Source: a bacterium
Lineage (GTDB): Bacteria; Patescibacteriota; Minisyncoccia; Phycocordibacterales; UBA12088
Assembly (NCBI GenBank): GCA_003252295.1
Contig: QKEV01000007.1
Location: 80,139-144,138 of the forward strand
Direction of reading: 5' to 3'
Length of the DNA: 64,000 bases
Within the stretch, counting starts at the first letter, position 1, and every line of letters starts with the position of its first letter. Shown here piece after piece: positions 4,546-29,988 of this stretch. The notes beneath the pieces were generated by a model. The model was not told the DNA's origin, searched no databases, and was given only the letters and a program-made list of their open reading frames with translations. Made by a program: the position numbers and the translations under genes.

Positions 4546-4550
4546 AAAAA

Positions 4551-11939: not shown

Positions 11940-11950
11940 ATGTATTACCA

Positions 11951-11974
11951 ATGAACATACCATGGTATGTTCAT
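11951..11974. repeat. Perfect 24-nt palindrome atgaacatacca|tggtatgttcat
   Basis: Exact inverted repeat in the intergenic region downstream of the ABC-F gene. Confidence 0.6.
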
Positions 11975-12153
11975 TCATCGTAACAATTTTTTGCACCGCA
12001 CCATGGGCAGTGCCACTCTTTTCGTGTCTTGGGTGCATCACCAATAGACCACCACTTGTTGCACTCCTTGCATGTGAAATGGTAAATGACTTCCATACTT
12101 TTTGTACCTTTCTCTGCTTTTTTGGTTTTAGGGTCTGTTGTCACGTTGTATTT

Positions 12154-13632
12154 TTAAGCTTTACCAAGCTCTAGTGTTTCGTTGAGACGTATCTGTGAAG
12201 TGAACTCAGGTACATGGGAGACTAAGAGCATCGCGCCTTCAAACTTGTCGAGTGCGCGTGCAATGACCGGTATGTGCCTGAAGTTGATATGGTTCGTTGG
12301 TTCATCAAGTATCAAGAGTCCCGGCTTTAGGAGTACCAGACGAGCAAATGCAACCAAACCTTTCTGTCCTTCGGAAAGTAAGCCGATCTTTGTATGTATC
12401 ACATCACTCGTGAGAAGAAACCCTGCAGCAACTGAACGCATCTCCTCTTGCAACTGCACATCCATAACTTCAAGCAAGCAATCATAGACTGTTTGATCAA
12501 AGTCCAAGTTTGAAAAGTCCTGTCGGTAGTACCCAATACGCACACCCTGTTCTACCAGCTCACCATCAGCATGACCTGATGCAAGTGACTCAAGAAGCGT
12601 CGTCTTTCCGATACCATTTGGACCAACAATGTGTACATGATCGTTTCGTTTAACTGAAAAGTCACACGTAACCTTCTTAGGTACGTGGTCACGTATCACC
12701 TTGTATGAGGTGAGGTGCAGCACTTTTGCAGGTAAGTCTTTTTGTGTGGGAATAGTAAAGTCACGGATTGTTTTGTCATCTCTTCGGACATCAACCTTGT
12801 TTGCTTCGTGCTCTTCAACTTTTTCACGCATGCGTTTAGCAACCAAGCGCAGCTTTCCTCCCTTGTGTGCAAAGTAGTTCGCCTTCTCCTTGTTTGCGAG
12901 AATATCCTTTTCAAGTTGCGCATTCTTCCGCCTCTCCTTTTCCACCTGTGCCGCTATCTCCTTTACCACATCATGATAGTCACCTGTGTATCGTTCAATG
13001 TTCCTTGTTTGTACATTCAAGTAGAGCACGCCTTCGGTAAAAGCATTGAGAAAATCAGCATCATGAGAAATAACGATTACTGTTTTTCGGTACTCCTTGA
13101 GAAACTTAGTGAGATGTTCGATACCTTCACGATCAAGGTTGTTGGTTGGTTCATCTAAGAGTAGTACATCAGGGTTTTGTATGAGCGCAGAAGCAAGAAG
13201 CAGTCGCGCCTGCTGTCCACCAGAGAAACTACCGACAATGCGATCCTTGAACTCACTCGCTACACTCGCCTTTTTAGGAGCAAGATTCACCACCTCAAGT
13301 ATTTCGTCGATCTTTACATCAATGTTGTACATCTTTTCTGTAAAGCATTTCTCAAAATACGCTCGCAAAGTAAGGTCAAGATCACTGCGCGGTATCACCT
13401 GCTTTGCTGTTGCAATACTTGTACGTGGAGCAATAGAAATTTTCCCAGTATCTGGTTTGAGCACACCTGTGATGAGCCCAAAGAGTGTGCTTTTTCCAGC
13501 ACCGTTTTGCCCCATAAGTGTGAGCTTAGCACCACGACGAACTGAAAAACTCGCCTCATGCAAGATGGGTTTTAGGTCAACATGCTCAAATGAGACGTTG
13601 TTAAAATTTATAAATCCTTCACGTTGTGACAT
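12154..13632 (-). CDS. ABC-F family ATPase (two tandem ABC nucleotide-binding domains, no TM domain)
   Basis: Two Walker A motifs (GQNGAGKST, GPNGIGKTT). Two signature motifs (FSGGQQARL, LSEGQKGLV). Two Walker B motifs (LLLDEPTN, LILDEPTN). Confidence 0.85.
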   Translation of the reverse strand: MSQREGFINFNNVSFEHVDLKPILHEASFSVRRGAKLTLMGQNGAGKSTLFGLITGVLKPDTGKISIAPRTSIATAKQVIPRSDLDLTLRAYFEKCFTEKMYNIDVKIDEILEVVNLAPKKASVASEFKDRIVGSFSGGQQARLLLASALIQNPDVLLLDEPTNNLDREGIEHLTKFLKEYRKTVIVISHDADFLNAFTEGVLYLNVQTRNIERYTGDYHDVVKEIAAQVEKERRKNAQLEKDILANKEKANYFAHKGGKLRLVAKRMREKVEEHEANKVDVRRDDKTIRDFTIPTQKDLPAKVLHLTSYKVIRDHVPKKVTCDFSVKRNDHVHIVGPNGIGKTTLLESLASGHADGELVEQGVRIGYYRQDFSNLDFDQTVYDCLLEVMDVQLQEEMRSVAAGFLLTSDVIHTKIGLLSEGQKGLVAFARLVLLKPGLLILDEPTNHINFRHIPVIARALDKFEGAMLLVSHVPEFTSQIRLNETLELGKA

Positions 13633-13775: not shown

Positions 13776-15956
13776 CTATATTCCATCTGTAATAGTGTTA
13801 CCGTGTGCATCGATACTGCAACCGATTTGGTTATATCCTTCAAAGATATCTTTCAAGGCATTGTAGTCTTGCTTGGTACCATCAGGATAGATATCATTGA
13901 ATGCATTGATGATCTCGTCAGTTGACATTGGGTACGGTACATCAGTATGAGCCGCATTTAGGAGTGCTGCTACTGTATGACGTCCAAGCGCAATGAGTCC
14001 TCCTCCACCTTGTCCTAGTACATCCAGAAGAGTGCTACCTGGGAATGCGTCCTCAAAGTAGGTTGCAAAAAGATCATCCGACATATACGGGTTAGCCCAG
14101 AGTTCAGTGTGGTTTTTCCAGAAACCTGGTGTACAACCAGCAAACTCAAGTGTCTCAATACTGATCGTGTGTGCATCATCATCCATAATCTCATTTGGGA
14201 ATCCTTCTGGGTTGTAGAGCACATCTACAATGTTAACAAGTGGATTTGGGTCTGACCCTTGTATCGTGTAATCAACTGTAAAGTTACAGCTATCACCAAA
14301 ACCAAGTGTGTCACAACCTGCATTTGTTGCTTCAGTAGTGATGTCACCTATCACATCATCAAGCACACTCACCAGTATAAGATCTGGCGCATCACTAGAA
14401 CTCATATTCTCTATGGTGTAGTCGTACGTAACCGTGTCACCTACCGCTGCCGTACTTGGACCATTCTTGGTGACCATAACTGATGGCTGGAAGAGGTTAA
14501 GTGAGTGCGTATCACTACTTGAAACCTCGGCACCATCAAGACCTTCCATGGTGTTGTAGAGTACTGTAACCTCGTTCTCTAGAGGATCATTTGCACCTTC
14601 AGGAACGGTAAACAGCACGTCAAACTGACAGCTTTCACCTGCCGCAAGAAATGCACATCCTGCGTCTGTGGCATCTGAGGTTAGGTCTCCGATAACATCA
14701 TCATCTACACTCTCCATAAAGAGATCAGTATCACCCTGGTTTGTAATGGTGAAGCTGTAGGTGGTGTCATCTCCGATTTTTGATAGGTTGTCACCCGTCT
14801 TTTCAACGAGAATAGACGGGTTTGAACAGGTAACGGTTACCAACGCATCATCACTCTGACCGGTTTCTGTGATCGTAGCAATGTTTGGACGCTCACCTTC
14901 ATCTCTATCACAAGCAAACTCAACATCGTAGTTATACGTTGTGTCATCATTAGTCATTACAGGGTCACCACCATTCTGTGCCGCAAACTCACCATTGGTA
15001 TCAGTAATGGTCACTTCATCGAAACCAATAATGTTTGGGTTCACGCCTGCAAAATCAATGTCTGCCGTACCTGAACCACCAGAGACCAAACTTCCATTTG
15101 TTACCTCTACGGTAGCGGTGTTCGTGCGTGTTGTGTCATCTGGCAGCATAGATGTGTACTCACATTCAAGGGTCTCACCTGGAGCTAGTTCGAACGGAAA
15201 GTCTACACCACAAGTAACCTCATCTGCATCACCATAACCATCTATCACATCAGACACACTTTCGATGTAGGCAACTTCTGAATCATTCGGATTGTAAATA
15301 GTAATGGTTCCAGTCACGGCATAGTTGTCATCAACTGTCGTTTTGTCTACGCCGATGGTGTACGTTGAAGTGTCACTTTGTCCTGTTAGAAGGTTGTGCG
15401 TGTCTACATCAACATCTTTTGTTATATCCCACGTAAAAGTGCGGTCAAAGCTTGGTACCGCATCTTTTGAAACTTCCAAGCTAATCACCTCATTCACTGA
15501 TGCGTTCTTAGAACCACTTGAATTAAGGTCAGTAATCGCTTTGAGTGTTCCATCCCATGTTACATTTGCTGTCCAAAGCCCCCCTACCATGTCTGCTGCA
15601 TCAGCAATGTACGGTACACTACCGATAGCTGCGGTTGGTGTTGGGTTTGGGTAGTTTGCAGGACCAAAGTCTGTGGTACTACCATCAGGAAGTGTAACGG
15701 TTACGGTACGGTTCTCAATATCACAACCATCAAGACTTGCCGGGTTTCCAGCACTTACGGTAAAGGTAATTGTTTCTCCTTCTTCAGCGACAATTTTATC
15801 TGAAGAAATATTGACAACACTGTTGTCAGCACTACAGCCAGTTGGAGATTCTGCTAGTGCCACTTGTGCAAAGCCAAATGATAAAACAGCAAAAACAAGT
15901 CCAGTGACTGCCATGCTGAGTCTTAAAAGCTTTGCCGATATACTCGGTAAATACAT
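13776..15956 (-). CDS. Large secreted surface protein with internal DUF11-like repeats
   Basis: Signal peptide/TM. Repeated blocks (...TITNQGDTDL..., VLYNTMEGLD / VLYNPEGFPNE, ATDAGC / ATNAGC). T/D/G-rich beta-repeat composition. Confidence 0.6.
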   Translation of the reverse strand: MYLPSISAKLLRLSMAVTGLVFAVLSFGFAQVALAESPTGCSADNSVVNISSDKIVAEEGETITFTVSAGNPASLDGCDIENRTVTVTLPDGSTTDFGPANYPNPTPTAAIGSVPYIADAADMVGGLWTANVTWDGTLKAITDLNSSGSKNASVNEVISLEVSKDAVPSFDRTFTWDITKDVDVDTHNLLTGQSDTSTYTIGVDKTTVDDNYAVTGTITIYNPNDSEVAYIESVSDVIDGYGDADEVTCGVDFPFELAPGETLECEYTSMLPDDTTRTNTATVEVTNGSLVSGGSGTADIDFAGVNPNIIGFDEVTITDTNGEFAAQNGGDPVMTNDDTTYNYDVEFACDRDEGERPNIATITETGQSDDALVTVTCSNPSILVEKTGDNLSKIGDDTTYSFTITNQGDTDLFMESVDDDVIGDLTSDATDAGCAFLAAGESCQFDVLFTVPEGANDPLENEVTVLYNTMEGLDGAEVSSSDTHSLNLFQPSVMVTKNGPSTAAVGDTVTYDYTIENMSSSDAPDLILVSVLDDVIGDITTEATNAGCDTLGFGDSCNFTVDYTIQGSDPNPLVNIVDVLYNPEGFPNEIMDDDAHTISIETLEFAGCTPGFWKNHTELWANPYMSDDLFATYFEDAFPGSTLLDVLGQGGGGLIALGRHTVAALLNAAHTDVPYPMSTDEIINAFNDIYPDGTKQDYNALKDIFEGYNQIGCSIDAHGNTITDGI

Positions 15957-16248
15957 AAGCCAAAGTATTATCTAATAATGCTACTAATAACGAATAAGAG
16001 ACATTATCAATAACATGCTTTCGTAATGGTGATGGTCTGAAGTGAAGTCAAATACGCACTATCATAGTGTCGTGCGAAGAGCGGTCACTCGTCCTAAAAC
16101 TTTCACAACTGAGGTAGAGGTTCTGTTACTTCTCAGTCTATGCTAATAAAGGAAACCGTCTAGTTGACAAATATTTCTATAATGACACAGTCGGAAAATT
16201 TATAGTTTATACAGAACACAAACTAACCACGAAGCATGTTGTACATCA

Positions 16249-16707
16249 CTACTTCGTTTCTACAATAAGTTTTCCCACCATTCCCATCTGACGATGCTGT
16301 CCTACAGAACAGTAGTACTCATACTCACCTGCCTTGTCAGCAACAAACGTTACTGACGTCACAGTACCGGGGTTGACCTGTAGGGTTGATGCATTGAACT
16401 CATCAACCACCCAATCATGAAACCCGTCTTTCGACTCAAAGTTGATAGTGACCGTATCACCCTCTTGTACAGTGATTTCAGTTACATCAAAGGCAAAGTT
16501 GGTTCCAGAAACATTAAAAATAACGTTTCCAGTATCATCTTCTACCATTGTTTCAGGTACAGCTTGCTGCTCGACCGTTGTCGTAGTAGCCGGCACCTGC
16601 TCATCCTTTGAAGACGTGAATACAAATACACCTGCCAAGAGAACCAAAATGATTCCGACAATAATGTATGTAGACCTCATAGTACTAATGATTAATCTAA
16701 TAATCAC
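16249..16707 (-). CDS. Membrane-anchored cupredoxin (plastocyanin/azurin-like type-1 blue copper protein)
   Basis: N-terminal TM. Cu ligands FHDW (His) and YEYYCSVGQHRQMGM (Cys-x4-His-x2-Met). Confidence 0.7.
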   Translation of the reverse strand: MIIRLIISTMRSTYIIVGIILVLLAGVFVFTSSKDEQVPATTTTVEQQAVPETMVEDDTGNVIFNVSGTNFAFDVTEITVQEGDTVTINFESKDGFHDWVVDEFNASTLQVNPGTVTSVTFVADKAGEYEYYCSVGQHRQMGMVGKLIVETK

Positions 16708-16796
16708 GTTCCCTTGTCCTAATGCACCACTAGGAGTGAATGTGTTACCTGTAGTATATCAAAAGTGTTAAAAAAGAAAAATCACCTGATTATTTT

Positions 16797-17684
16797 TTAA
16801 TTAAGGAAGTTGGCAAGTTTTCTTGTTGCTCCTTTCCCAAAGGTACTATCTATAAGTCTAACAAAAGGCAGTATGTTACCAGTTACTTGTGCCTTAATAA
16901 AAATATCAATAATCTCTTTCTTATTTGTAAATCGACTTTCGTCCTTAGAAAAAATAAGATCTACAAACTCAAGAAATCTTTTTACTTCTTTTTGTCTGCT
17001 TGTATCAACAGTTTTACCACTCTCGTTAAGTAACTCAAGTTCTTCCTTAAACATCTCGTCATTTTGTATAACTTCGTTAAAAAATCTTTTTGTCATGTAT
17101 CCAGTAAGTGCTTCATCAACTGGTCCAAGAAGTTTATCTTCAGCATTTTGACGACTAAAAATATGTAAACCAGTGCGATAGTTTTGCAACATCCCCTCCT
17201 TTGTTATCTGTAGAGCATTATATGAAGCAAGTCTGTGCCAAAGTTCATGAAAGGTTGTGATTGCTGTCTCAATATCAGATCTACGATCAATTTTCACCTC
17301 ACCAAAAAATGATGAATGACTGCCTTGTAGTAATCTTCCTCCAGAAATCTTTTCTAGTGAACCTTCTTTAAGTAAGTGAATATGTTCATCAGTTATGTTT
17401 ACAAACTCATCTTTACCATACTGTTTCGCATACTCGATTACCGTGTTTTTTACCAGTGCGATCAGTTCCAGATCTTCGGGAGTTTTTTTAAGTTCATATT
17501 TCTTGTACTTACTTGCACCTACTTCTCTATACACCTTTTCAAGAATTACTTCTGGGTCAGTGATCAAAGTCCCATTATCAGAATAGATGCAGTCATGTAA
17601 CCGTGTTTCTAACTCCATATAGTCCATATCATTTTCAGAACCCACTAGTTTTTCGTAGTGTGAATTTAGAAACTTTTCACTCAT
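16797..17684 (-). CDS. HExxH-motif protein, putative zincin-like metallopeptidase. Paralog of the 20211..21149 gene.
   Basis: ITTFHELWHRLAS, then NYRTGLHIFS, then C-terminal TFGKG. These are alignable to LLHEMTHYVS / ARTGYKIVS / SFGKK in the paralog. Leaderless start (TATACT-N7-ATG). Confidence 0.55.
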   Translation of the reverse strand: MSEKFLNSHYEKLVGSENDMDYMELETRLHDCIYSDNGTLITDPEVILEKVYREVGASKYKKYELKKTPEDLELIALVKNTVIEYAKQYGKDEFVNITDEHIHLLKEGSLEKISGGRLLQGSHSSFFGEVKIDRRSDIETAITTFHELWHRLASYNALQITKEGMLQNYRTGLHIFSRQNAEDKLLGPVDEALTGYMTKRFFNEVIQNDEMFKEELELLNESGKTVDTSRQKEVKRFLEFVDLIFSKDESRFTNKKEIIDIFIKAQVTGNILPFVRLIDSTFGKGATRKLANFLN

Positions 17685-17755
17685 TTACAAAGTATACATA
17701 CTACACCTTACTGTTGCCAGGTTGTTGTAGAGTACTAGAATATGTATATAAAAAA

Positions 17756-17786
17756 CAGGGAGAGCTGCTAAACTCTCCCTTTTTTG
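17756..17786. terminator. Bidirectional rho-independent terminator
   Basis: aaaaaa-cagggagag-ctgctaaa-ctctccct-tttttt. Confidence 0.65.
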
Positions 17787-17789
17787 ATT

Positions 17790-18240
17790 CCCAGAACCTA
17801 GGATGTGTTGTTTCCAACAAACACCGTTAAGCGGTCAACTGGGTCCATGTTCCCGTGATGTAGCACCAACCAAACTGGAAAAACTATTCGTTATTCTTAC
17901 CCAAAAAATTCTTCCGTCAGTTGCACCACTCGAAGCTTCGGTACTAGGCTACGCCTTCGCCTTCCTACACTGCCGCACCTCAAAGGTAGGTTGCCAGATT
18001 TAAAGACCTTAGCTGTCGATCTGTATCACCCGCGACTTAGTTTACAAAGTAAACACACTACTACCATAACTCCTGGTTGTCACGTTATAGTGACCTCTCG
18101 TTCCGCAGAACTTAAAACATGGAAAGACCTACTAAACAAGTTATAAGAAATGTTAAATTATTACAAGTTTACAAACAGCAGTAAGTATTATGATTTCATT
18201 TATTTATCAGTTCCCTTCTAATAAAGCTACAAAGAGTTAA
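17790..18240. ncRNA. Candidate structured non-coding RNA of unknown identity and unresolved strand
   Basis: About 450 nt with no credible ORF in a compact genome. It is bracketed by two strong intrinsic terminators (17756-17786, 18241-18271). A degenerate copy of the island leader motif lies at 17805-17825 on the + strand. Confidence 0.3.
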
Positions 18241-18271
18241 GCGCCATACCGTGAAAAGGTGTGGCGCTTTT
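18241..18271 (+). terminator. Rho-independent terminator (+ orientation)
   Basis: gcgccatacc-gtgaaaa-ggtgtggcgc followed by ttttat. Confidence 0.6.
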
Positions 18272-18728
18272 ATAAAAAATACCGTGGAGAAATTCTTCCT
18301 TTAGGGTTTCCGGTACAAAAAATGCACCATTTCACATCTCTAAGAGATGTCGTATCGGAGTGTCGTCCTTCGCGATACAGCTCAAAGTCTGTATCCAACT
18401 TAACTCCGCGATGCTACCGGTTGCTTCCACCCTCCTTTTGGGGAAGATGTACTCTGGATACCACATAGGTAAAAGTTGATCTTGAGACGGTTTTCTCTCG
18501 CGACCGCGTTTAGTCCGTGTTTGTGGTCCAACAACCCCTGGTAAACCAGGTTTGCCCTGTTCCCATTTCAGATTTCCGTGGTCATCTGTCCCGAGAATCG
18601 ATTTTTTCTTTCTTGAAAGAACTCGCTCCATACTTAAAATAGCATATCCAATCATCAATGCAAATCATTTTTAAGTACTGGCTGTCCCCCCTTCGTTGAA
18701 GCTACAGCGGATAAAATCTGGGACAATG

Positions 18729-19151
18729 TTAGAACTTTTTTGCTAACAGATGCAAATGTTTAACAATGTTTGCAATTGACATCCAAATTCCGAGAGTAAT
18801 AAACACAATTAAAAGATAAAAGAAAGTGGTATCAATATCTGAGTATCCTATCATTTCTCCAGAATGTTGAGTATTACTTGATAATGAAAATACAGCACCA
18901 TATGAAATGTAAAAGTAACCTGTAATTATTAACAGCAACACTCTTGAGAGTAAAAAAAGTACCGACATAATATTTTTAGGAATTTTAAGCTGCTTCTTGA
19001 ATATCAATATAATCATCAACATTGGTGATACACCAAAAGACAATACCAAGAACCAAAAGAAATTTCCAAAATATATTACACTACTCAAAAAAAGAACATC
19101 AAAAGTTAAGTACACTTTCGATTTAGTTTGTATTGGTGAAGTATTTTTCAT
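18729..19151 (-). CDS. Small polytopic membrane protein, hypothetical (island gene D)
   Basis: 140 aa, about 4 TM helices. Preceded by the conserved leader ...CAGTTCCGAGTCCTAGGTTGTTTGTGTATATACT-GAGATT-ATG. Confidence 0.5.
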   Translation of the reverse strand: MKNTSPIQTKSKVYLTFDVLFLSSVIYFGNFFWFLVLSFGVSPMLMIILIFKKQLKIPKNIMSVLFLLSRVLLLIITGYFYISYGAVFSLSSNTQHSGEMIGYSDIDTTFFYLLIVFITLGIWMSIANIVKHLHLLAKKF

Positions 19152-19197
19152 AATCTCAGTATATACACAAACAACCTAGGACTCGGAACTGGGTCGA

Positions 19198-19764
19198 TTA
19201 TTTTGTTGGTTCATAGGATAAACCAGGAGTGTCTAAATCGACAAATGGAACACCAATAAAAGTAGCTAACTCATTAGCAACCTCTTTTAATTTTTTTAGC
19301 TTTAAATCAAAAACCTTAACTCCGTTAACACTCATTCCACCAGATGAGGATGTGCTAAGTCTTCTGATGCCACCATCTCTGGTTTTTAAAGCAAGTTTGT
19401 ATTTTCTTGTTCTGTTGTCATTTTTATCTCTGCCATTAATATAATGAATCATGACATGTTCGATTTCAGAAAAATCATAATCAGTCTTCAACTTTTCTTT
19501 TGACCACACATGTTTTTTATAAACAAATACTTTTCTTCCCTGCAAATCTACAACAACCTTTATAGTGCTTGTAAACAGAGTAATAAATAAACCTACAACA
19601 AAAAAAATCCCAATAGGAACAAGGTAACGTATATTTTCATGCCAAGGTATAAAAGCAAGAAGTACTACTGGTGCAATTATAAAAAAGATAAAAATTATTA
19701 TTCTTGCAACTGTATGACTCTCAATTAGTGTTAATGTATTACTAGTTTTTTGTTTTATTTTCAT
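19198..19764 (-). CDS. Membrane protein (2 TM helices plus cytoplasmic domain), hypothetical (island gene C)
   Basis: The ORF table starts at GTG 19779, but ATG 19764 (MKIKQKT...) sits 6 nt after the conserved TATACT of the leader motif. Confidence 0.5.
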   Translation of the reverse strand: MKIKQKTSNTLTLIESHTVARIIIFIFFIIAPVVLLAFIPWHENIRYLVPIGIFFVVGLFITLFTSTIKVVVDLQGRKVFVYKKHVWSKEKLKTDYDFSEIEHVMIHYINGRDKNDNRTRKYKLALKTRDGGIRRLSTSSSGGMSVNGVKVFDLKLKKLKEVANELATFIGVPFVDLDTPGLSYEPTK

Positions 19765-19808
19765 AAATATAGTATACACAAAAACAACCTAGCACTGGAA
19801 CTGCAAAA

Positions 19809-19855
19809 AAGAATCAGGTGAGATGTGCCCATTGGGTAGTAATCACCTGATTCTT
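19809..19855. repeat. Split inverted repeat aagaatcaggtga...tcacctgattctt (13-bp arms, 21-nt spacer), followed by T-run. Bidirectional terminator-like.
   Basis: It shares arms with the perfect palindrome at 21190-21219. Confidence 0.6.
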
Positions 19856-19956
19856 TTTGGTGGCCGTCCTCCTCTACTACAACTAGAGCAGATAAGATTT
19901 AGAACAATACACACTACGTACCGATCAATGCTCAGGTACTAGGGTTAGGACTTTTG

Positions 19957-20184
19957 TTACTGATTCTCAGACTGATTTCGCTCCTCAGCTAATCTAAGTA
20001 TTTCATCCTGATCAACCTTATCAGGAAAGCGAAGCTCAACCTCACCCCACATTATCAGCCCATTCCTATAATCATCCACTATACTTTCAATGGTAGGATA
20101 CCGCTCTCTTGCTTCTTCACCCTGTTCAACATTCAATTCCCTTTCTTATGCAAGTTCATCATTAAAATTTTCTATTTTTTCCAT
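19957..20184 (-). pseudogene. Small ORF (island gene B) interrupted by an in-frame TAA after codon 12. Possible pseudogene or leader-peptide plus downstream ORF.
   Basis: MEKIENFNDELA-TAA-ERELNVEQGEEARERYPTIESIVDDYRNGLIMWGEVELRFPDKVDQDEILRLAEERNQSENQ-TAA. It is preceded by the conserved leader motif (GTGTATACT-N8-ATG). Confidence 0.3.
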
Positions 20185-20210
20185 ACTTAGTAAGTATACA
20201 CAAAAACAAC

Positions 20211-21149
20211 CTAGGATTCACTCTCAATTGGATTGTTTTCAATGTAGGAAAATATTTCACTTTCGGTATTTTCTTTTGTATCCTCATCTTCTTCTGAAAA
20301 ATATTTTTCAATGAGACGAAGGAGTGCTTCTTCCTTATGTGCGTCCACATGAAGGTATGTTCCTAGTAACCCTAGGATCTTTAAAGATTTTTTACCAAAA
20401 GAATCACCAACTTTCTTTAAAACCAGCAAGTTCTGAGTAAATAATCCTTTAAGAAAATCTGTGTAAACTTCACGTTTATTAGCAAGTGTATCAATAGCAA
20501 TTTTTTCTACAATAGGATTTAGTACGTCAATATACTCCGCATACATATACTCATTATTTTCCAAATCATTCTCTGAAATACCGTATTCACTCTCAAGATA
20601 TTCTTGATTTTCATAAAGTGTTTGTGATACAAAAAAATCAACAAGCAATTCATTTAAACCTATAAAAGCTTTTTTTTGCTGTGGTTTCCAGTTTGAAACT
20701 ATCTTATATCCTGTCCTTGCTACATTAATATTGTCTTGTGATGCAAAAAATTTTCTTTTTGATACATAGTGTGTCATTTCATGGAGTAGTGTTGTAATAA
20801 GTGTTAGCTGATCTGAACATTTATCAATATTGATATAGATAGCATCTTCAACTGAATCAAATATCCCTCGAGAATTTGTTTCAAATTTATTTATAAAATC
20901 ATCCGATGAAAGTAGATGGATTTTTGAACTATCTATAGCAACTTGTTCATTAAAACCAAGTTCTTCAAGTTTATTAATCAAAAAATCGTTTAAAAAATCA
21001 ATCAATTCAAGCACCTCATTACTTTTAGTGATCTCATTTTCAATCGGTTGAGTAAACTGCTCTCTATACTTATCTAAATCAGCTTTTAAGGTAGTTTTTT
21101 CATCTTCCTTATACGTTCGTGTGCCTATAAAATTTGATTCTATACTCAT
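20211..21149 (-). CDS. HExxH-motif protein, putative zincin-like metallopeptidase. Paralog of 16797..17684 (island gene A).
   Basis: LLHEMTHYVS...ARTGYKIVS...SFGKK. ATG at 21149 (MSIESN...) is 7 nt after the TATACT of the leader. The ORF table starts at an upstream TTG. Confidence 0.55.
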   Translation of the reverse strand: MSIESNFIGTRTYKEDEKTTLKADLDKYREQFTQPIENEITKSNEVLELIDFLNDFLINKLEELGFNEQVAIDSSKIHLLSSDDFINKFETNSRGIFDSVEDAIYINIDKCSDQLTLITTLLHEMTHYVSKRKFFASQDNINVARTGYKIVSNWKPQQKKAFIGLNELLVDFFVSQTLYENQEYLESEYGISENDLENNEYMYAEYIDVLNPIVEKIAIDTLANKREVYTDFLKGLFTQNLLVLKKVGDSFGKKSLKILGLLGTYLHVDAHKEEALLRLIEKYFSEEDEDTKENTESEIFSYIENNPIESES

Positions 21150-21189
21150 AAACACAAGTATACACAAAACATCCTAAGACTCGAACTGA

Positions 21190-21219
21190 AAGAATCAGGT
21201 GATTAATCACCTGATTCTT
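21190..21219. repeat. Perfect 30-nt palindrome aagaatcaggtgatt|aatcacctgattctt between island gene A and tRNA-Gln
   Basis: Exact inverted repeat. Half-sites also occur at 16780-16792 and 58484-58494. Confidence 0.7.
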
Positions 21220-21224
21220 TATTG

Positions 21225-21295
21225 CTGCCGGACTAGGACTCGAACCTAGATTAACGGGACCAAAACCCGTCGTCCTACCATTAGACGATCCGGCA
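21225..21295 (-). tRNA. tRNA-Gln (anticodon UUG)
   Basis: Minus-strand UGCCGGAUCGUCUAAUGGUAGGACGACGGGUUUUGGUCCCGUUAAUCUAGGUUCGAGUCCUAGUCCGGCAG. 7-bp acceptor stem, D-loop AAUGGUAG, anticodon loop UUUUGGU, T-loop GGUUCGAGUCC. CCA is not encoded. Confidence 0.8.
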
Positions 21296-21386
21296 ATTAT
21301 TTACTACCTATTTTCTTTATCATCTCTTCCTGGCAATAAATGTGCCCTACAGAGTACCTTGAAAAGGGCTTTTACTCAAGGTGTTT

Positions 21387-22037
21387 TTAACATTCTGGGC
21401 AGATGTAGCCCTCCTCTACTTTCCAGGTGCCATCGAGTGTGTCACCGTACTCACCATCCGCTGTCCAAGTGGTTTTAAAGACACAGCCGTTCTTTATTTC
21501 CAAGTTCTTCCAGAGCGCCCTCCTGTACCTACCGAGTGGTGACAAGCCGTCATCCTGCATACTTGAACGCATGTTTGCCATGAGTCCGCGGTGGGTCACA
21601 ACGAGGATGTTTTGCTCTTCTCTCCTTGCAAGGCACTGGAGTGCATTAAAAGCGCGCTTCTGAAACTCACCAAGGTTCTCCTCATCACTGTAGTGCCAGT
21701 CATTGTTTCCTGCACGGAAGTACAACTGCCCCATCACCCAGAGCGACTTTGGCGAGAGCCAGCTCCTTCCCTCGAGCTCTGACGGTTTCCTCAACTCCGT
21801 GAAGAACTCGTTGGTCTCAAGTGGTGCTGAGAACATCCTGTTTACAATCTGTGCTGTTTCGTACGCACGCTCATAGGGACTCGTGATCACCAGTTCTATA
21901 GGAAGATTTTTAATTTTTTGAGCAATTGCCTCTGCCTGCTCACGACCAAGCTTTGAAAGTGGTGTATCAGGAGACTGATGCACCACTTTTTTGTTCAACT
22001 CTGTCTGTCCGTGTCGTAAAAAGTAAATTGTTTTCAT
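21387..22037 (-). CDS. Histidine phosphatase family protein (phosphoglycerate-mutase-like)
   Basis: N-terminal IYFLRHGQTELN (RHG catalytic motif). Confidence 0.7.
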   Translation of the reverse strand: MKTIYFLRHGQTELNKKVVHQSPDTPLSKLGREQAEAIAQKIKNLPIELVITSPYERAYETAQIVNRMFSAPLETNEFFTELRKPSELEGRSWLSPKSLWVMGQLYFRAGNNDWHYSDEENLGEFQKRAFNALQCLARREEQNILVVTHRGLMANMRSSMQDDGLSPLGRYRRALWKNLEIKNGCVFKTTWTADGEYGDTLDGTWKVEEGYICPEC

Positions 22038-22042
22038 AATAG

Positions 22043-22717
22043 CTACTGTAATGTGCGAAGTTCACGTGGCAAATGTGAGTAATCGTTCCAAACCTTAAGT
22101 CGCCACTTATTAGCTATTGTAGCATTCTCATGGTGGTCAATAATACTCACCCCTGTGTTTTCAGAGCGTAGGAAGCGGAAGAGTCGTGTTGCAGAAGTAG
22201 GTGCCAACTCACCCTCGTACATCATGGTGTTCAAAAGAATCGAGATAAAAGCGCCGTGCGAGACGAGCATAATGCGCTTTTCGGTACGCTGTGTGAGCAT
22301 ATCCATGATCTCTTGAGAACGTACATGCAAATCCTTGTAGTTATCCTCGTCAGTGTAGCGCCAGTCTGGGTTGTCTATGTTCTTGTAGAGTTCATCATGA
22401 AAATCAAGACTCTCTTTTGAGTTGTACGGTTTATTTACAAGCGAAGTTGGAAGCATGTACTCACGTAACGCATCACACTTCTCTAGTGGTACCTGTGTTT
22501 CCTTCTGCACAATGGATGCTGTTTCAAGTGCGCGATCCATAGTACTTGTGATGATCACCTCAGGAGCAAGCTCTACCGCATGATGCGCAAAATGTTCCGC
22601 TTGCTCACGTCCGAGGTCTGTGAGCTGGTCAGTGTCATCTTGGAACACCTTTTTTACGTTTGCCTCAGTTTGGCCGTGTCGAACTATGAATATTTTTTTT
22701 GACGGAGTACTGAACAT
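22043..22717 (-). CDS. Histidine phosphatase family protein, tandem paralog
   Basis: N-terminal IFIVRHGQTEAN RHG motif and ...LVSHGAF. Confidence 0.7.
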   Translation of the reverse strand: MFSTPSKKIFIVRHGQTEANVKKVFQDDTDQLTDLGREQAEHFAHHAVELAPEVIITSTMDRALETASIVQKETQVPLEKCDALREYMLPTSLVNKPYNSKESLDFHDELYKNIDNPDWRYTDEDNYKDLHVRSQEIMDMLTQRTEKRIMLVSHGAFISILLNTMMYEGELAPTSATRLFRFLRSENTGVSIIDHHENATIANKWRLKVWNDYSHLPRELRTLQ

Positions 22718-22720
22718 ACG

Positions 22721-23758
22721 CTACTTTGCAGGGTCAAGGTGTTCAATAATAGCGAGCTCGAGTGGTAATTGTGGAATATAGGTGGTACCAAGTCGTGTGT
22801 AGGCATCAAGCAAGTGTAAGAGAAACTTTGAGTTTATAAACTGCTTTGAAACACCTGCGTACTGTTCAATCTTTGCAAAATCCTCAGGACTGAACTCTTG
22901 CTGAAGCTCTTTACGCATAGAAGGTGCACTCCTTAAGAGCAGTACCGCACGCACCAAGCGGAGTAAGAGTGTAAGCAGTGTCTGCATGTCAGCGTTTGCG
23001 TCAGTCACCTTTTTTACCACTAAGAGTGTTTTGTCTGAGCTTCCCTCAGCTACAGCATCGAGTAGCTCAAGCAATAGTATACCTCGTGGTGCACCGGAAA
23101 CAGCTTCTATTTCCTCGAGCGATATCTTCTTGTCACTTGAAACACTCAGTGCCTGCTGCAGGTAACCATGTGCATCTCTGAATGACCCATTTGCTAGAAG
23201 GGCAAGCAGCTCTGCACTTCCTGGTTCAAGTTCAAAACCTTCCTTTTTTGCAACACGGGAGATCATGGTGCTCAGTATCTCAACGGTCGGTTTCTTAAAG
23301 GTAAATGACTGACAACGAGAAATGATAGTGTCCGGCAATTTTTCAACCTCAGTTGTAGCAAGGATAAAGACCACGTGCTTTGGTGGCTCCTCTAGAGTCT
23401 TCAAGAGCGCGTTGAACGCTTCTTTCGTAAGCATGTGCACCTCATCAATGACGTACACCTTGTACGGTGACTCAAACGGCAGTGTATGCACTTCCTCACG
23501 GAGCGCACGCACATCATCAATACCGCGGTTACTCGCAGCATCTATTTCATGCAGATCACGGTTCGTAGTGCCTATCCGATCTGCAAAAATACGAGCAAGC
23601 GAGGTTTTACCGGTACCACGTGTACCAGAGAAAAGGTATGCGTGCCCAATGTTTTCCTGCTCTATCGCTCCTCTGAGCGCCTTCACAACATGGTCTTGTC
23701 CTATGACCTCCTTAAAGTTGTTTGGGCGATACTTTCGATAGAGTACGGTCTGTGACAT
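22721..23758 (-). CDS. dnaX: DNA polymerase III clamp-loader subunit (DnaX gamma/tau-like). Short form lacking the Zn module and C-terminal tau domains.
   Basis: GQDHVVKALRGAIEQENIGHAYLFSGTRGTGKTSLARIFA, Walker B VYVIDEVHML, and sensor LEEPPKHVVFILATTE. It could alternatively be HolB-like. Confidence 0.7.
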   Translation of the reverse strand: MSQTVLYRKYRPNNFKEVIGQDHVVKALRGAIEQENIGHAYLFSGTRGTGKTSLARIFADRIGTTNRDLHEIDAASNRGIDDVRALREEVHTLPFESPYKVYVIDEVHMLTKEAFNALLKTLEEPPKHVVFILATTEVEKLPDTIISRCQSFTFKKPTVEILSTMISRVAKKEGFELEPGSAELLALLANGSFRDAHGYLQQALSVSSDKKISLEEIEAVSGAPRGILLLELLDAVAEGSSDKTLLVVKKVTDANADMQTLLTLLLRLVRAVLLLRSAPSMRKELQQEFSPEDFAKIEQYAGVSKQFINSKFLLHLLDAYTRLGTTYIPQLPLELAIIEHLDPAK

Positions 23759-23765
23759 TGAGACA

Positions 23766-24749
23766 TTATACCCTACTTTTGAGATACTGTTGTACCAAAT
23801 CCTCTACCTCATCCACAGAATTTGTGGCAAAAAGTGCTATACGTAGCTCTTTTGAGCCCTTAAAACCAGTGACGTACGCCTTGAAATGTTTCTTCATGAC
23901 CGCAAAGCTCTTGTGTAAACAGTATGACTCATAGAGACGGCAGTGCTCCAGCATGATACGCAATCGTTCTTCTATAGAGGGTTCTTCACTATCGGCAAAA
24001 AACCACGGCTTCCCAAAGATCCCACGACCTACCATGTAGCCATCTGCGCCTGTTTCCCTACATTTCTCTTCACCCTCTGCCACACTCACTACATCACCGT
24101 TCCCTATAATGCGTACATGTGAGAGTCCCATTCTGTCACGCATTTTTACCAGTTCAGCAACATGTTCCCATCTGGCAGGTACGTTCGACATCTCTTTTCG
24201 TGTACGAGCATGCAGGGTTATCGCACTTGGCTCTTCTCTGAGAATCATAGGAAGCCACTCTTCCAGTTCATTCTTGTTGTATCCTATACGTGTCTTTACT
24301 GAGAGCGGTATCCTACCTGCAAGACCTTTCTTAGCACTCTGTATGAGCTCCACAGCGAGCTCTTTTGTCTTCATAAGTGCTGCACCGGCTCCTTGCTTTT
24401 CTATCGCTGTATGAGGGCACCCCATGTTGATATCCATACCATCGAAACCAAGCTCCACAATGAGGTTTGCAACGTACTCCATCATTTCAGGTTTTGAGGT
24501 AAATACCTGCGCAACGATAGGTCGCTCAATCGAAGAGAAACGCAGGTCTTTCATGAGCGGGTTCTCCTCGTCAGGCATCTTCTGTATCTCACGAGTATGG
24601 TAGAGACCATCAGCAGAGACAAATTCAGTCCACATCACGTCCGGCTTTCCGTACTTCGCAATCATCTCACGAAACGGCGCATCAGTGACATCCGCCATAG
24701 GAGCCAAGCATCCGAAAGGAGTTTCTAAACTATCCCAAAAATTAGTCAT
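23766..24749 (-). CDS. tRNA-dihydrouridine synthase (Dus family)
   Basis: DINMGCP...GAGAALM and TIM-barrel Dus motifs. Confidence 0.8.
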   Translation of the reverse strand: MTNFWDSLETPFGCLAPMADVTDAPFREMIAKYGKPDVMWTEFVSADGLYHTREIQKMPDEENPLMKDLRFSSIERPIVAQVFTSKPEMMEYVANLIVELGFDGMDINMGCPHTAIEKQGAGAALMKTKELAVELIQSAKKGLAGRIPLSVKTRIGYNKNELEEWLPMILREEPSAITLHARTRKEMSNVPARWEHVAELVKMRDRMGLSHVRIIGNGDVVSVAEGEEKCRETGADGYMVGRGIFGKPWFFADSEEPSIEERLRIMLEHCRLYESYCLHKSFAVMKKHFKAYVTGFKGSKELRIALFATNSVDEVEDLVQQYLKSRV

Positions 24750-24784
24750 GAAAGGTAGTGTACCGTTCGTAGCAAAAGATGCAA

Positions 24785-27253
24785 TTACTTGAGTTCACTG
24801 AACGTAAAAGTCTCTCCAGGATGCACATTCCCCTTAAGTATCTCATCAGCGAGTGTCTGCTCTACTATTTCCTGAATAGCGTGCTCAAGCGGACGTCCAC
24901 CAAACTTAGGGTTGTAACCCTTTTGCGCTACGTAGTCTATGAGTGCATCATTTACCTCAATATCAATATTCTTTTCATTCTTAATGCGTTTTGCAAACGC
25001 CTTGAGGTGTATTTCTGCTATCTCACGTACATGTGTTGGCTTGAGTGCATGGAAAACAACAACATCATCAAAACGGTTCAGGAACTCTGGTCTGAAACTC
25101 TGACTTGAAACAAGGTGGTCAATGAGTGCATCCTTCTCATTCTCTACATCCTTACCCTCCTTCTCAAGTTCCCATATGAAATCTGCTCCCGCATTACTCG
25201 TCGCAATAATCACCAGGTTGCGCATGTTCACACTCTTTCCAAAACCATCAGTGAAGTGTCCCTCATCGAGTATCTGTAGGAAGAGGTCATGAATACCCCT
25301 GTCTGATTTCTCAAACTCATCAAGCAAGAGTACGCCATACTGACGCTCACGCATAAGTGCATCAAGTCTTCCTGACTTACCTGTTACTGCAGAACCAATG
25401 AGTTCATCAAGTGCATTCACCGACTGGAACTCTGACATGTCTAGGCGAGTCATTGCTTTTTCATCATTGAAGAGCACCTCTGCAAGTGCTTTTGCTGTCT
25501 CTGTCTTTCCTACTCCTGTAGGTCCAAGAAAAAGGAAGGTACCTATTGGTTTTTTAGCACTTCCAATACCAGAACGTGCTCTTCGCAGTGCACGCGATAT
25601 GACATCAACCGCCTTATCCTGTGCTATAACACGTTTGTGAAGTATCTCTTCAAGGTGCAAAAGTTTGTCACGCTCCTCCTTGTCCGGCTCACCTACTGGC
25701 ACATGTGATTTCCTTGTGACAAGTGTGTCTACATGAGCCGGCAAGACCTGATGTATTGAGCTTGAAAGTGCAACAGGTACTAGCTCCTCTAAAAGGTCAT
25801 ACGCCTTGTCAGGCATAACACCTGTTGGGAAGTAACGATCTGCAAGGTCAGCAATATGTTCCAATGCTGGAATACTAAAGACAATATCTGAAGTGCGTTC
25901 ATGCATCATTGCACGCTGTTCAAGCAGCTCAAGTACACCAGTGTTCTGAACATCCTTCATTTGAATAACATCAAATGCTTGTGCGATCCTGCTGTCTCGA
26001 GCCAAGTGTTCATCATAGTTTTCACTCAGTTCTGCGAATACTATTTGAATATTGAGTGACTCAAAGTATGGTGAAAGCAACTCAACAAGATCTACACCGA
26101 TCTTTTGTGTACTCTCAATGATTGCAGAGATGTTCTCCATGTACAAGATTGTGTTGCCTGAAAATACTGCCTGGTTACAAACATCCATCAGCAACTTTTC
26201 AAAAGATTGTTTTTCACCTGAAGCAATGATTACCGACTCAACATCAATGTAATACATCACCTTATCCTCAATAGGTGGAAGTGCGTGACCTTCACGTATT
26301 TTGTGATACAGCTGTGCTGTGCGTACGCGTGCATTAGAAACATCATGCGCAAGCAGGAGCGCGTTACTTTGACGTGACCGACATAGGATGTTCTCTAGAT
26401 CCTCAACCTCATCTTCCTCTTCATGCCGTGTCATGAGTGCACTCTGCCACATAGGATCCTCTGTTAACTCATGCCCATACCGTCGCAACAGGTACGTCTC
26501 ACCGTAACTCCAATCCTTTCCAAGGCCAGGTATTCTGCCAAGGTTGTCACGTGACCACCAACGCTTCGCTCGTCTCTCACGTCGCTCTATGCTTGTTACC
26601 CATTCAGCAGCATGTATGAGCTGCCGTTCATTGATGTTGCATGTCTGTAGGAAATGACGAAATGCCTCATCATACTTATAGACACTTTTGGTGTAGGTAC
26701 TCAACACAACACCACCATCTCTATCTACAATAAACTCTTGCGCGGTAAGCGTTGGTGTACGTTTCTTTTCAAAATCAGCATACATCGCTTCATCAACACC
26801 TGCCCTAAAGAGAATTTCTTGACCAAAGTCAGAATTCAAGAAACCACCTGTGATATCACTATCTGGTGTGTCAAAAATAATGGTGGCAACCTCCCAGCTG
26901 AGTGCAGGGGTTCCCTCATTGCTTCCCTCTTTCAACACTTCCTGCAGACCAGTGAAGTAGTAGGAACGATGCATTGCCTCAAGCGATGAGAAAATAAATG
27001 TGACAGAGAAAATAAGCAGGAACAACCCCCATATCTTAAAAGAAATGAGAGCAATGATATTCAAACCATACAGTGCACCAGCAGGTGATGTATCTAGCGC
27101 AAAAGCAAAAATAGTAACAAACAACAGGAATATGGAGGCAAAAAATAGATTCTGGTTGATACGTTGTCGCACCTCAGGAGAAACTACAGCACGTAATGCA
27201 AGTGCTCCTCCATATAACTTATACATTACCTTTTTAAGTTGGAAGTACGGCAT
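24785..27253 (-). CDS. Membrane-anchored Clp/Hsp100-family AAA+ ATPase with an inactive first AAA+ domain (D1) and an intact second (D2)
   Basis: N-terminal TM helices. The D2 Walker A/B and sensor motifs are intact, and the D1 catalytic motifs are lost. Residue-level detail is in the finding. Confidence 0.65.
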   Translation of the reverse strand: MPYFQLKKVMYKLYGGALALRAVVSPEVRQRINQNLFFASIFLLFVTIFAFALDTSPAGALYGLNIIALISFKIWGLFLLIFSVTFIFSSLEAMHRSYYFTGLQEVLKEGSNEGTPALSWEVATIIFDTPDSDITGGFLNSDFGQEILFRAGVDEAMYADFEKKRTPTLTAQEFIVDRDGGVVLSTYTKSVYKYDEAFRHFLQTCNINERQLIHAAEWVTSIERRERRAKRWWSRDNLGRIPGLGKDWSYGETYLLRRYGHELTEDPMWQSALMTRHEEEDEVEDLENILCRSRQSNALLLAHDVSNARVRTAQLYHKIREGHALPPIEDKVMYYIDVESVIIASGEKQSFEKLLMDVCNQAVFSGNTILYMENISAIIESTQKIGVDLVELLSPYFESLNIQIVFAELSENYDEHLARDSRIAQAFDVIQMKDVQNTGVLELLEQRAMMHERTSDIVFSIPALEHIADLADRYFPTGVMPDKAYDLLEELVPVALSSSIHQVLPAHVDTLVTRKSHVPVGEPDKEERDKLLHLEEILHKRVIAQDKAVDVISRALRRARSGIGSAKKPIGTFLFLGPTGVGKTETAKALAEVLFNDEKAMTRLDMSEFQSVNALDELIGSAVTGKSGRLDALMRERQYGVLLLDEFEKSDRGIHDLFLQILDEGHFTDGFGKSVNMRNLVIIATSNAGADFIWELEKEGKDVENEKDALIDHLVSSQSFRPEFLNRFDDVVVFHALKPTHVREIAEIHLKAFAKRIKNEKNIDIEVNDALIDYVAQKGYNPKFGGRPLEHAIQEIVEQTLADEILKGNVHPGETFTFSELK

Positions 27254-27256
27254 ACA

Positions 27257-27643
27257 CTATGAAAATGTTATCAGCTCAACACCATAGATAATGAGAAACA
27301 GTAGCAATAATGGTGCAAGCAACCATATGAAAAAGAACAATGTGCCAGCAACGATTGTAAGGAGTATGAATAACAACCCAACAATAATGAGCAATGTTCG
27401 CATCACAAAACCGACCAGGCGCATGAGTGTATTTACGGTGAGAGCAGTAAAAAATGCCTCAAAATGCAAACCTTTTCCTTCGTATGACTCACCTAAACGA
27501 CGAAACGGGGCAAAAAGTGTACGCACCATGAGTGGTAAGGAAAAAAAGTTGTAGAAGAACCACACAAAATTACGAACGATATTGATATAATCAACTATCG
27601 CCTTACCGTAATGCCACCGTACATAGTAAATCAGCAAACGCAT
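27257..27643 (-). CDS. Small polytopic membrane protein, hypothetical
   Basis: 128 aa, 3-4 TM helices. Confidence 0.45.
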   Translation of the reverse strand: MRLLIYYVRWHYGKAIVDYINIVRNFVWFFYNFFSLPLMVRTLFAPFRRLGESYEGKGLHFEAFFTALTVNTLMRLVGFVMRTLLIIVGLLFILLTIVAGTLFFFIWLLAPLLLLFLIIYGVELITFS

Positions 27644-27681
27644 ATTACTTTTGTGCTTCTACTATAGCATGAAGTATATAC

Positions 27682-28572
27682 TCACTCCTCAACGTTATCA
27701 CCGAAATATCTCACAAATGCTTTATTTCCAAAACGCAGATCTATGTACTCGACATCTTTTTCAGCATCAATAGAGTCTGAGCCAAGCAAGGCAAACAATC
27801 GACGAGATATAACCTCGACATCTTCTTCACGTGGTATGAGCAACTTGTAACCGTTAGTGAGATACACCTCAACATCATGTTCATCCACAAACAGCATGGC
27901 ATGCGCTGGAAGGTTATTGTCATTCAGTATCTTGTTAAAGTACTGCCAACGTGTGAAGTTTTCAGTATCTATGTACTGCTGAGCTATTGGCTCTGCTTTT
28001 GTGAGTGACCCATAGTACCGTGGCAACACCGTCCCACTATACTGTGGTGCACGTGCGTAAATGTAACCAGTTTTATCAACAAGGTAGCAGGTACCCCAGA
28101 GATTGTCTGAAGTGTCATCAAGGTCAGATAGCTTTACGTATGCTATCGGTGGCACCACGTCGCCACACCACAACGCAGCAGGTGTTCGTTCATGTACAGC
28201 TACATGTAAGTTGTAGAAATCAGTTCGTGTAATAGCGACATCTTCTATTCTCGGGAATGCCTCTATGAGAGAAGCTTTCAAGTTTTTATGTGAAAAACGA
28301 AACACGGTGTCATGCGGAACAACTCCAAAAAAGGTCCCTGTGACACTTTCTGCAAGCGAGTTAGTAAGCATGTCCTGACCGATAATCCCATCAGTCTCAA
28401 TAGTGAGTTCTGTAAGTCGAAACACATCAAGATGGATAACATATACCATGAGTGCACAAAACAACGCTACACCTACGAGCATGGCACCACTTTTCAAGGC
28501 AACACGAACACGTTCACGTTTTCTTGCTTGTTCTGTTCTAAACTTGCGCTTGGCTATCATGTGGTGGTTCAA
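27682..28572 (-). CDS. ftsQ: Cell division protein FtsQ/DivIB-like (TM plus POTRA)
   Basis: Cytoplasmic basic N-terminus and a single TM. POTRA-like LTIETDG...PRIEDVAITRTDFYNLHVAVHERTPAALW matches the FtsQ V.R..P..L.V.V.ER.P.A.W pattern. Confidence 0.55.
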   Translation of the reverse strand: MNHHMIAKRKFRTEQARKRERVRVALKSGAMLVGVALFCALMVYVIHLDVFRLTELTIETDGIIGQDMLTNSLAESVTGTFFGVVPHDTVFRFSHKNLKASLIEAFPRIEDVAITRTDFYNLHVAVHERTPAALWCGDVVPPIAYVKLSDLDDTSDNLWGTCYLVDKTGYIYARAPQYSGTVLPRYYGSLTKAEPIAQQYIDTENFTRWQYFNKILNDNNLPAHAMLFVDEHDVEVYLTNGYKLLIPREEDVEVISRRLFALLGSDSIDAEKDVEYIDLRFGNKAFVRYFGDNVEE

Positions 28573-29833: not shown

Positions 29834-29988
29834 ACTCCCTAATTAACTCCGTACGTAACTACGGAGCACTTGTAATGTATTTTAGTGTAGCATGTTAGCG
29901 CCCTTTTGCCAGAATTACGTACCTATTGACTAGGCAACCATTGTGTTCTATAAAATACATAGAGGGTACATTATTCAAAACAATATAG

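Follow-up and report, generated by a model that had tools for sequence, protein, structure and literature searches.

The question raised by this locus is how consecutive genes with non-homologous products came to begin behind copies of the same short leader directly downstream of a tRNA gene. The locus lies on the minus strand of a 64-kb window (the whole stretch of DNA analysed) within a 154-kb contig and, read in the minus-strand direction, consists of a glutamine tRNA gene (tRNA-Gln), a terminator hairpin (T1), leader and gene A, leader and unit B, a second hairpin (T2), leader and gene C, leader and gene D, a segment termed X, gene E, a half-hairpin and the promoter of a cupredoxin gene. 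It forms an AT-rich stretch of 4.4 kb located 3' of a conserved DprA/SerRS-Dus-DnaX-tRNA-Gln block. The explanation favoured here, with moderate confidence, is local copying of one promoter module and one terminator module within a flexible AT-rich region, the promoter being reused to give monocistronic leaderless units. All leader and hairpin counts reported below refer to the 64-kb window. The organism is an uncultured bacterium from Patescibacteria, or CPR (short for Candidate Phyla Radiation), that is Paceibacteria/Parcubacteria-like; its DnaX shared at most 62% amino acid (aa) identity with proteins from Kaiserbacteria, Parcubacteria or "Patescibacteria group" metagenome-assembled genomes, and its genome is represented only by the 154-kb NCBI/JGI contig and an identical Logan contig.

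Leader and hairpin copies within the locus

A leader of 32–34 nt occurs in four copies, exclusively in front of genes A–D, in agreement with the original prediction made from the sequence, which had placed a conserved leader before these four consecutive minus-strand genes. All copies are on the minus strand: copy A, CAGTTCGAGTCTTAGGATGTTTTGTGTATACT, at 21157..21188 (TATACT at 21157-21162), copy B at 20193..20225, with an approximate end (TATACT at 20193-20198), copy C at 19771..19803 (TATACT at 19771-19776) and copy D at 19158..19191 (TATACT at 19158-19163). The 5' half of copy B runs into the end of gene A, covering its final codons and its TAG stop, the TAG falling within the CCTAGG of the leader, and copy D starts 6 nt past the stop codon of gene C. 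The 21-nt leader core TAGGWTGTTTTTGTGTATACT gave three matches (B, C and D) against zero expected, with copy A departing from this core by a 1-nt deletion. Pairwise comparison of the copies gave identities of 22/22 between B and C, 30/33 between C and D and 29/32 between A and D. For the complete upstream modules of A and C, comprising hairpin and leader and spanning 75 and 97 nt, 68 of the 73 aligned positions were identical, with two indels.

The hairpins reported before units A and C, one of them a perfect palindrome next to tRNA-Gln, were both recovered. T1 (21189..21220, minus strand) is a palindrome of 32 nt, AAAGAATCAGGTGATT/AATCACCTGATTCTTT, with a folding energy of −19.4 kcal/mol and a z-score of −6.65, and is by position the terminator of tRNA-Gln. 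T2 (19806..19858, minus strand) has the 16-nt arms of T1, a 21-nt loop and then TTTTTT (−29.3 kcal/mol, z −5.0), so that T runs follow both hairpins. A half-copy of the module, AAATAATCAGGTGATT, which contains the left arm only and forms no stable hairpin, is present at 16780..16795 (minus strand), on the border where the AT-rich segment gives way to the promoter of the cupredoxin gene, the latter lying about 20 nt further. Specifically, AATCAGGTGATT occurs four times as an exact match, all within the locus, compared with 0.38 occurrences expected when one mismatch is allowed; one of the four is the half-site at 16780-16791 on the distal AT-rich edge, which was missing from the original prediction. 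Neither the A-B nor the C-D interval contained a terminator. A hairpin after tRNA-Gln is also carried by relatives.

The 3' third of the motif as first described corresponds to an ordinary leaderless promoter, since TATACT and its spacing recur across the window. The spacers between TATACT and the start codon are 7, 8, 6, 6 and 6 nt for A, B, C, D and E, respectively, with no Shine-Dalgarno sequence, and a TATACT-like box is found 6–8 nt 5' of the start codon in at least 10 other genes of the window, including dnaX, dus and those starting at 10941, 44856, 44784, 61336, 23758, 24749 and 1263. Other Patescibacteria loci show the same promoter design in the form of TATAAT, 6 nt and ATG. The distance from a −10 box to the transcription start is usually 6–7 nt, so that the mRNAs of A–D and of these other genes would start at the A of the ATG. 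Gene E has its own promoter of this generic type (17685..17696, minus strand), composed of TATACT and ttgtaa followed by ATG; the weaker leader copy proposed at this position amounts to the −10 box and its spacing, and no A–D leader copy is present there.

The part of the leader private to A–D is the stretch of about 25 nt located 5' of the −10 box, (C)AGTTC(C)GAGTCCTAGGTTGTTTTTGTG. When the upstream regions of 23 leaderless-type starts in the window were compared, A, C and D paired up and no other pair was seen; unit B, which has the 22-nt core, was omitted from this comparison on account of its broken open reading frame (ORF). Rfam gave no family above chance at the leader, and no transposase was found in the locus; judged from the 64 kb covered, the hairpin may still be MITE-like.

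The locus would then comprise five consecutive leaderless transcription units, A–E, in which copies of the promoter module serve A–D and copies of the terminator hairpin stand at three places. Local reuse of the promoter is suggested because the modules of A and C include the hairpin and because the B copy overlaps the end of gene A. The composite of hairpin and leader common to A and C would have spread by local duplication or recombination. Unit B, after A, and gene D, after C, have no Shine-Dalgarno sequence, would lie in a read-through transcript and may each be expressed from a leaderless mRNA of their own, while T1 would close the tRNA transcript, T2 the A-B unit and a terminator at 17780-17757 the C-D-X unit. 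The private upstream part probably places A–D under common control. Local copying may also have left its mark in segment X, where a dead copy of the promoter of E (18041-18061) matches at 19 of 21 positions and has TTTACT and ACT instead of TATACT and ATG.

Several points weigh against this explanation. The leaderless starts are read from spacing alone, and some operon-internal genes elsewhere in the window, for example two histidine phosphatase genes, show no −10 box and no clear Shine-Dalgarno sequence. Translation would thus not strictly depend on a private promoter, which weakens the notion that every gene requires one for want of internal initiation independent of a Shine-Dalgarno sequence. 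The window covers 64 kb of the 154-kb contig and the leader could lie elsewhere in the genome. Simple duplication does not account for a 12/13 match between the leader and the T-arm of tRNA-Gln, nor for the presence of hairpin copies at both edges and in the middle of the AT-rich segment. Finally, gene A has a GC content at third codon positions (GC3) of 0.20, a value in poor agreement with inheritance that was purely vertical.

The HExxH proteins and the other units of the locus

Gene A (20211..21149, minus strand) encodes a 312-aa protein with the motif HEMTH, an A-type HExxH protein predicted to be a gluzincin-like metallohydrolase, and gene E (16797..17684, minus strand) encodes its 295-aa E-type paralog, which has the motif HELWH and shares 40–58% aa identity with E-type homologs. 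The two had been described as alignable, and their homology was confirmed with 25% aa identity over 239 aa (E=1e-7); they are the sole matches to the HExxH profile within the window. The profile search returned 1083 cluster representatives at E<=1e-3, family size being counted as at least 1000 clusters at 50% identity, and the family falls into an A-type group of about 305–318 aa and an E-type group of about 292 aa. In an alignment of 63 members, H123, H127 and G147 were invariant, and E124, R145, E167, E39/K42 (in the ELEKT motif), H78 and G252 (in the FGKG motif) showed at least 90% conservation. The AlphaFold2 (AF2) model of A (pLDDT 84.5, pTM 0.87) combines a beta-sheet with the helices of HExxH (114-129) and of E167 (163-180), a beta-hairpin region and a C-terminal helical bundle, the predicted fold being that of a zincin core with HExxH and a downstream Glu as the third ligand.

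No model matching A or E was found in Pfam, NCBIfam, PHROG or PADLOC. Sub-threshold matches were limited to DUF6782 (E=0.065) and to SprT-like or MPTase-PolyVal in 1 of the 63 members; the best peptidase sequence match in the PDB, to selecase, was below threshold (E=0.11), and a Foldseek search of the A model against the PDB and BFVD gave nothing significant and no whole-chain relative. The statement that the HExxH products match no recognized family therefore held for named Pfam, NCBIfam and PDB families above threshold. On sequence and model grounds, A and E are taken to form part of an unnamed and new family of the zincin/gluzincin superfamily and are predicted to be zinc peptidases.

Most homologs are single genes without any small neighbour that is conserved, the genes around them being those for tRNA synthetases, RecO, dUTPase, Def/Fmt and ribonucleotide reductase, and no homologs of B, C or D were found beside members of the HExxH family. 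In one genome (L005), an A-type and an E-type gene (243-1172 and 2584-3609) occur within 2.5 kb of each other, with a Peptidase_S51 gene and a gene for a secreted 189-aa protein in between; from this co-occurrence, the two subfamilies may work together. The same genome has a common leader of about 40 nt, aaggggaggcgagataRaaYttttctgctataat(t)aaac, at 2540-2583 and 6140-6183, which precedes the E-type gene and an unrelated AAA_18 gene, respectively, the two copies agreeing at 26 of 28 positions 5' of the −10 box; on the L005 contig, most genes begin 6 nt past TGCTATAAT. This constitutes an independent case of a promoter common to an E-type gene and an unrelated gene. In another genome (L095, 572-4277), the A-type gene comes after tRNA-Ser(CGA), and genes nearby encode a SMODS-like protein, a multicopper oxidase and a large serine recombinase; no other HExxH context has a recombinase close to it.

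The remaining units encode two small membrane proteins, C and D, in place of the three originally counted. Unit B (19957..20184, minus strand) is an ORF with an in-frame TAA at 20146-20148, confirming the break reported earlier, and a 59-aa TTG-started remainder (19957-20136); it showed no family match and is probably a decaying pseudogene. Gene C (19198..19764, minus strand) encodes a 188-aa ORFan with two N-terminal transmembrane (TM) helices and a beta-rich C-terminal domain. Its matches to DUF6585 and EbsA, families of two-TM proteins, were weak and below the cut-off, and its single-sequence AF2 model (pLDDT 57) was too poor for a fold search. Gene D (18729..19151, minus strand) encodes a 140-aa ORFan with about four TM segments and shows no codon-position GC periodicity. 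Neither C nor D had cluster members outside this genome, and both appear to be lineage-specific small membrane ORFans; B also appears to be a lineage-specific ORFan.

Segment X (17697..18728, minus strand) has a host-like GC content of 0.42 within the AT-rich segment and contains no convincing gene, the 108-aa ORF at 18332-18658 (ORF108) being without a family match. In addition to the degenerate promoter copy mentioned above, it includes a fifth TCCTAGGTT core at 17795-17803 and a strong bidirectional terminator at 17757-17780, and a 391-nt part of the segment folds with a z-score of −2.55 and matches no Rfam family. Segment X and unit B were also considered as decayed HExxH copies, which was ruled out by profile scores that were all negative.

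The tRNA-Gln junction and alternative explanations

The tRNA-Gln gene (anticodon TTG; 21224..21295, minus strand), detected by ARAGORN and with an Rfam score of 61.9 bits, closes the Dus-DnaX-tRNA-Gln block and was the only family returned by the Rfam scan of the locus, all else falling below the gathering score. It lies on one side of the locus only, which is thus not flanked by tRNA-Gln as first described. In 8 of 10 relatives, tRNA-Gln(TTG) is also found downstream of dnaX, in most cases with dus upstream too; within 10 kb in these eight, none of A–E, the cupredoxin or the surface protein that follows it was present, and only the tRNA was common at the DNA level. In one relative (L016), an ABC-F gene 72% identical to window 12154-13632 is located 3 kb after tRNA-Gln with genes for six unrelated small enzymes in between, while the same interval measures 7.6 kb in the window. 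This difference in content and length indicates that the interval after tRNA-Gln is variable.

Gene A shows a different history. In L096, the order is DprA / SerRS - FtsQ-like - Dus - DnaX - (GIY-YIG) - tRNA-Gln(TTG) - hairpin - TATAAT-N6-ATG - A-type gene, and positions 1-6936 are collinear with window 20211-31910 although DnaX identity is only 48%; the window has a ClpC-like gene (822 aa) and a 128-aa gene as extras, and L096 the GIY-YIG gene. In L089, tRNA-Gln(CTG) is located 92 nt before the A-type gene, and a hairpin and a leaderless promoter are present here too. The arrangement of tRNA-Gln, hairpin and A-type gene is found in both genomes without repeats of the type seen in the locus. 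Altogether, tRNA-Gln is directly upstream in three of nine A-type contexts, a proportion far higher than would be expected in genomes with one or two tRNA-Gln genes. Judged from these gene orders, the position of gene A beside tRNA-Gln is ancestral and not newly captured. Of the cassette-like variable island originally proposed, the modular units, deviant composition and variable content are retained, but gene A is not a recent capture; likewise, the comparison across relatives that had been recommended gave eight genomes without A–E after tRNA-Gln and two, L096 and L089, in which the A-type gene is conserved.

The composition of the locus sets it apart from its surroundings, with GC3 values of 0.20–0.28 for A, C, D and E versus about 0.36–0.56 in flanking genes. 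In 6 of 9 other genomes (L002, L005, L091, L093, L095 and L097), the HExxH gene has a lower GC3 than any gene around it, by 1.3–3.5 standard deviations; its composition is ordinary only in L003 and in L096 and L089, the two low-GC genomes with the tRNA-Gln linkage. The low GC3 of the family may reflect either repeated transfer from low-GC relatives or AT drift through fast evolution.

Further observations were made around the junction. Two tandem histidine-phosphatase (His_Phos_1) paralogs lie between dnaX and tRNA-Gln (window 21387-22717); in several relatives the tRNA follows dnaX after about 20–50 nt and the pair is absent there, and because these relatives lack both genes at that place the pair looks like an insertion into the conserved block. 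Just past the AT-rich segment, window 13776-16707 encodes a cupredoxin of 152 aa with a membrane anchor and a surface protein of 726 aa containing DUF11-type repeats; in relatives, neither gene was found 3' of tRNA-Gln. In L013, two copies of a direct repeat, aagttgagcgcgctcaRgNcgcgtcaaaa (about 30 nt), stand right after tRNA-Gln (11943-12060) and are followed by about 2 kb of lower GC. In L007 (10286-11800), about 1.5 kb with a GC content of 0.52 comes right after tRNA-Gln in a genome of GC 0.40, with a structured-looking start and no Rfam match.

Among the alternatives to local promoter reuse, the one that survives best, although unlikely, is site-specific accretion of cassettes at tRNA-Gln. 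Here, recombination would take place at the hairpin, taken as a dif/att-like palindrome, at the T-arm-like opening of the leader, or at both, and segments of 1.35 kb (A+B) and 3.05 kb (C to E) would be small non-autonomous elements inserted stepwise by a trans-encoded recombinase. Such accretion would be in line with the direct copies of AAAGAATCAGGTGATT at the tRNA-proximal edge, in the middle and at the exact distal edge of the AT-rich segment, with the foreign-like GC3, with the differing content after tRNA-Gln among relatives and with the serine recombinase near the A-type homolog of L095. It is also favoured by the opening of the leader, GTTCGAGTC(C/T)TAG, which at 12 of 13 positions is identical to the neighbouring tRNA-Gln over its T-loop and 3' T-stem and lies in the same orientation, as do all copies, with a score reached by about 0.1% of background windows (p ~0.001 per 40-nt window). 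However, no recombinase is encoded by A–E, ORF108 or the ten flanking genes, and the T-arm-like pieces are without the acceptor-stem 3' end required of an att site that restores a tRNA. An exact plus-strand 10-mer, AATGGTAGGA, in unit B (window 20089-20098) equals the D-loop region of tRNA-Gln, probably by chance; it illustrates that chance matches of that size occur and calls for caution in reading the T-arm match. The leader and hairpin gave no match in IMG/VR viral contigs, and the leader gave two single, chance-like matches in JGI metagenome contigs, one in a generic dUTPase-gene promoter and one inside a coding region. The repeat-free order of tRNA-Gln, hairpin and A-type gene in L096 and L089 also argues against accretion, and the hairpins are fully explained as terminators. 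The region upstream of T2 was considered as a decayed tRNA 3' half arising from tandem integration and was ruled out, its score of 8 being reached by 25% of background windows.

A more elaborate version, and a distinctly doubtful one, is that hairpin and leader together form the joint of a small non-integron cassette system of CPR bacteria with the integrase acting in trans, the dif-like palindrome and T-arm-like core beside tRNA-Gln capturing short genes. If this were the case, captured genes would automatically gain a leaderless promoter with the +1 position at the ATG, and as a by-product AT-rich ORFs that are new or evolve fast, C and D for instance, would be expressed.

It is very improbable that the four leaders merely resemble each other as any strong promoters would under an ordinary promoter consensus. 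TATACT-N6-8-ATG is indeed common in the window and in other Patescibacteria loci, and for this half of the motif the suggestion that the leader might prove to be a genome-wide promoter was borne out; in contrast, the roughly 25 nt upstream are private to the locus, being conserved only in A–D (22/22 to 30/33), unlike in about 19 other leaderless-type starts, and at A and C the duplication took in the hairpin together with the leader (68/73). Least probable of all is the toxin/immunity, effector/immunity or anti-phage array that had been named among the examples of such loci, with the HExxH proteins as toxins or effectors and the small membrane proteins as their immunity or partner proteins: a zinc-hydrolase motif does lie beside ORFans for small membrane proteins, in a stretch that is variable, AT-rich and next to a tRNA, and L089 has a 90-aa membrane protein after its A-type gene, but no integrase, toxin, immunity, phage or defence match was obtained (PADLOC, NCBIfam and Pfam toxin models gave none, and PHROGs only weak, chance-level ones, across A–E and ORF108), A and E have no signal peptide, TM segment or trafficking domain, homologs stand mostly alone amid housekeeping genes without B, C or D homologs beside them, and searches of the island DNA against plasmids, of protein A against phages and of the E-type profile against IMG/VR returned no relatives.

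Comparison with known systems

The locus changes no major concept and is not the toxin or defence cassette array first suspected. Its HExxH family is without a representative in Pfam, NCBIfam or solved structures and seems to be a hallmark of Patescibacteria that is repeatedly linked to tRNA-Gln. Compared with known gluzincins and other zincins, namely minigluzincins such as selecase, the catalytic domain of M1 aminopeptidases, SprT/Wss1/Spartan, ArdC and YbeY, A and E showed no sequence match passing threshold, and the family has features of its own in the N-terminal ELEKT and IHxL motifs, the RxG motif and the C-terminal FGKG helical domain.

With integron cassette arrays, the locus shares short single-gene units parted by a recurring, partly hairpin-forming sequence. 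It differs from them in that no IntI was found and that its hairpins, being perfect stems, have none of the extrahelical bases of attC; GTTCGAG and GTTCCAG, which follow the hairpins, do not fit GTTRRRY. Integron cassettes are generally promoterless, whereas each unit of the locus has its own promoter. The locus is similar to tRNA-linked genomic islands and additive flexible regions in its position 3' of a tRNA and, with the reservation that gene A keeps its place beside tRNA-Gln in L096 and L089, in its deviant composition and its variable content; unlike these, it has no integrase and no duplicated tRNA 3' end, its boundary repeat is a hairpin arm and its junction with gene A is old.

In leaderless units such as those of mycobacteria, a −10 box lies about 6–8 nt before the start codon (PMC3898074, PMC4633059). 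The locus is comparable in having a −10 hexamer at a fixed short distance from the ATG and no Shine-Dalgarno sequence, the leaderless character being deduced here from the spacing, and it departs from such units in that five consecutive genes, including those within read-through transcripts, each have such a promoter.

The locus fits the concept of reused or putative mobile promoters, defined as similar upstream regions of 50–100 nt with at least 80% identity that occur within one genome before non-homologous genes (Matus-Garcia, Nijveen & van Passel 2012, PMC3488235). The modules of A and C fall within these limits of length and identity (68/73), while the B and D copies, at 22–34 nt, would not qualify alone. 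The downstream genes are likewise non-homologous, A and E being the only homologous pair, C and D TM ORFans and B without a family. In contrast to mobile promoters, the copies described here lie within 2 kb and are not scattered, are leaderless without a 5' untranslated region and are paired with a co-copied terminator hairpin. The locus may be viewed as a compact example of how a genome that uses leaderless mRNAs could wire unrelated genes to one promoter by copying a 30–90-nt module rather than by way of an operon.

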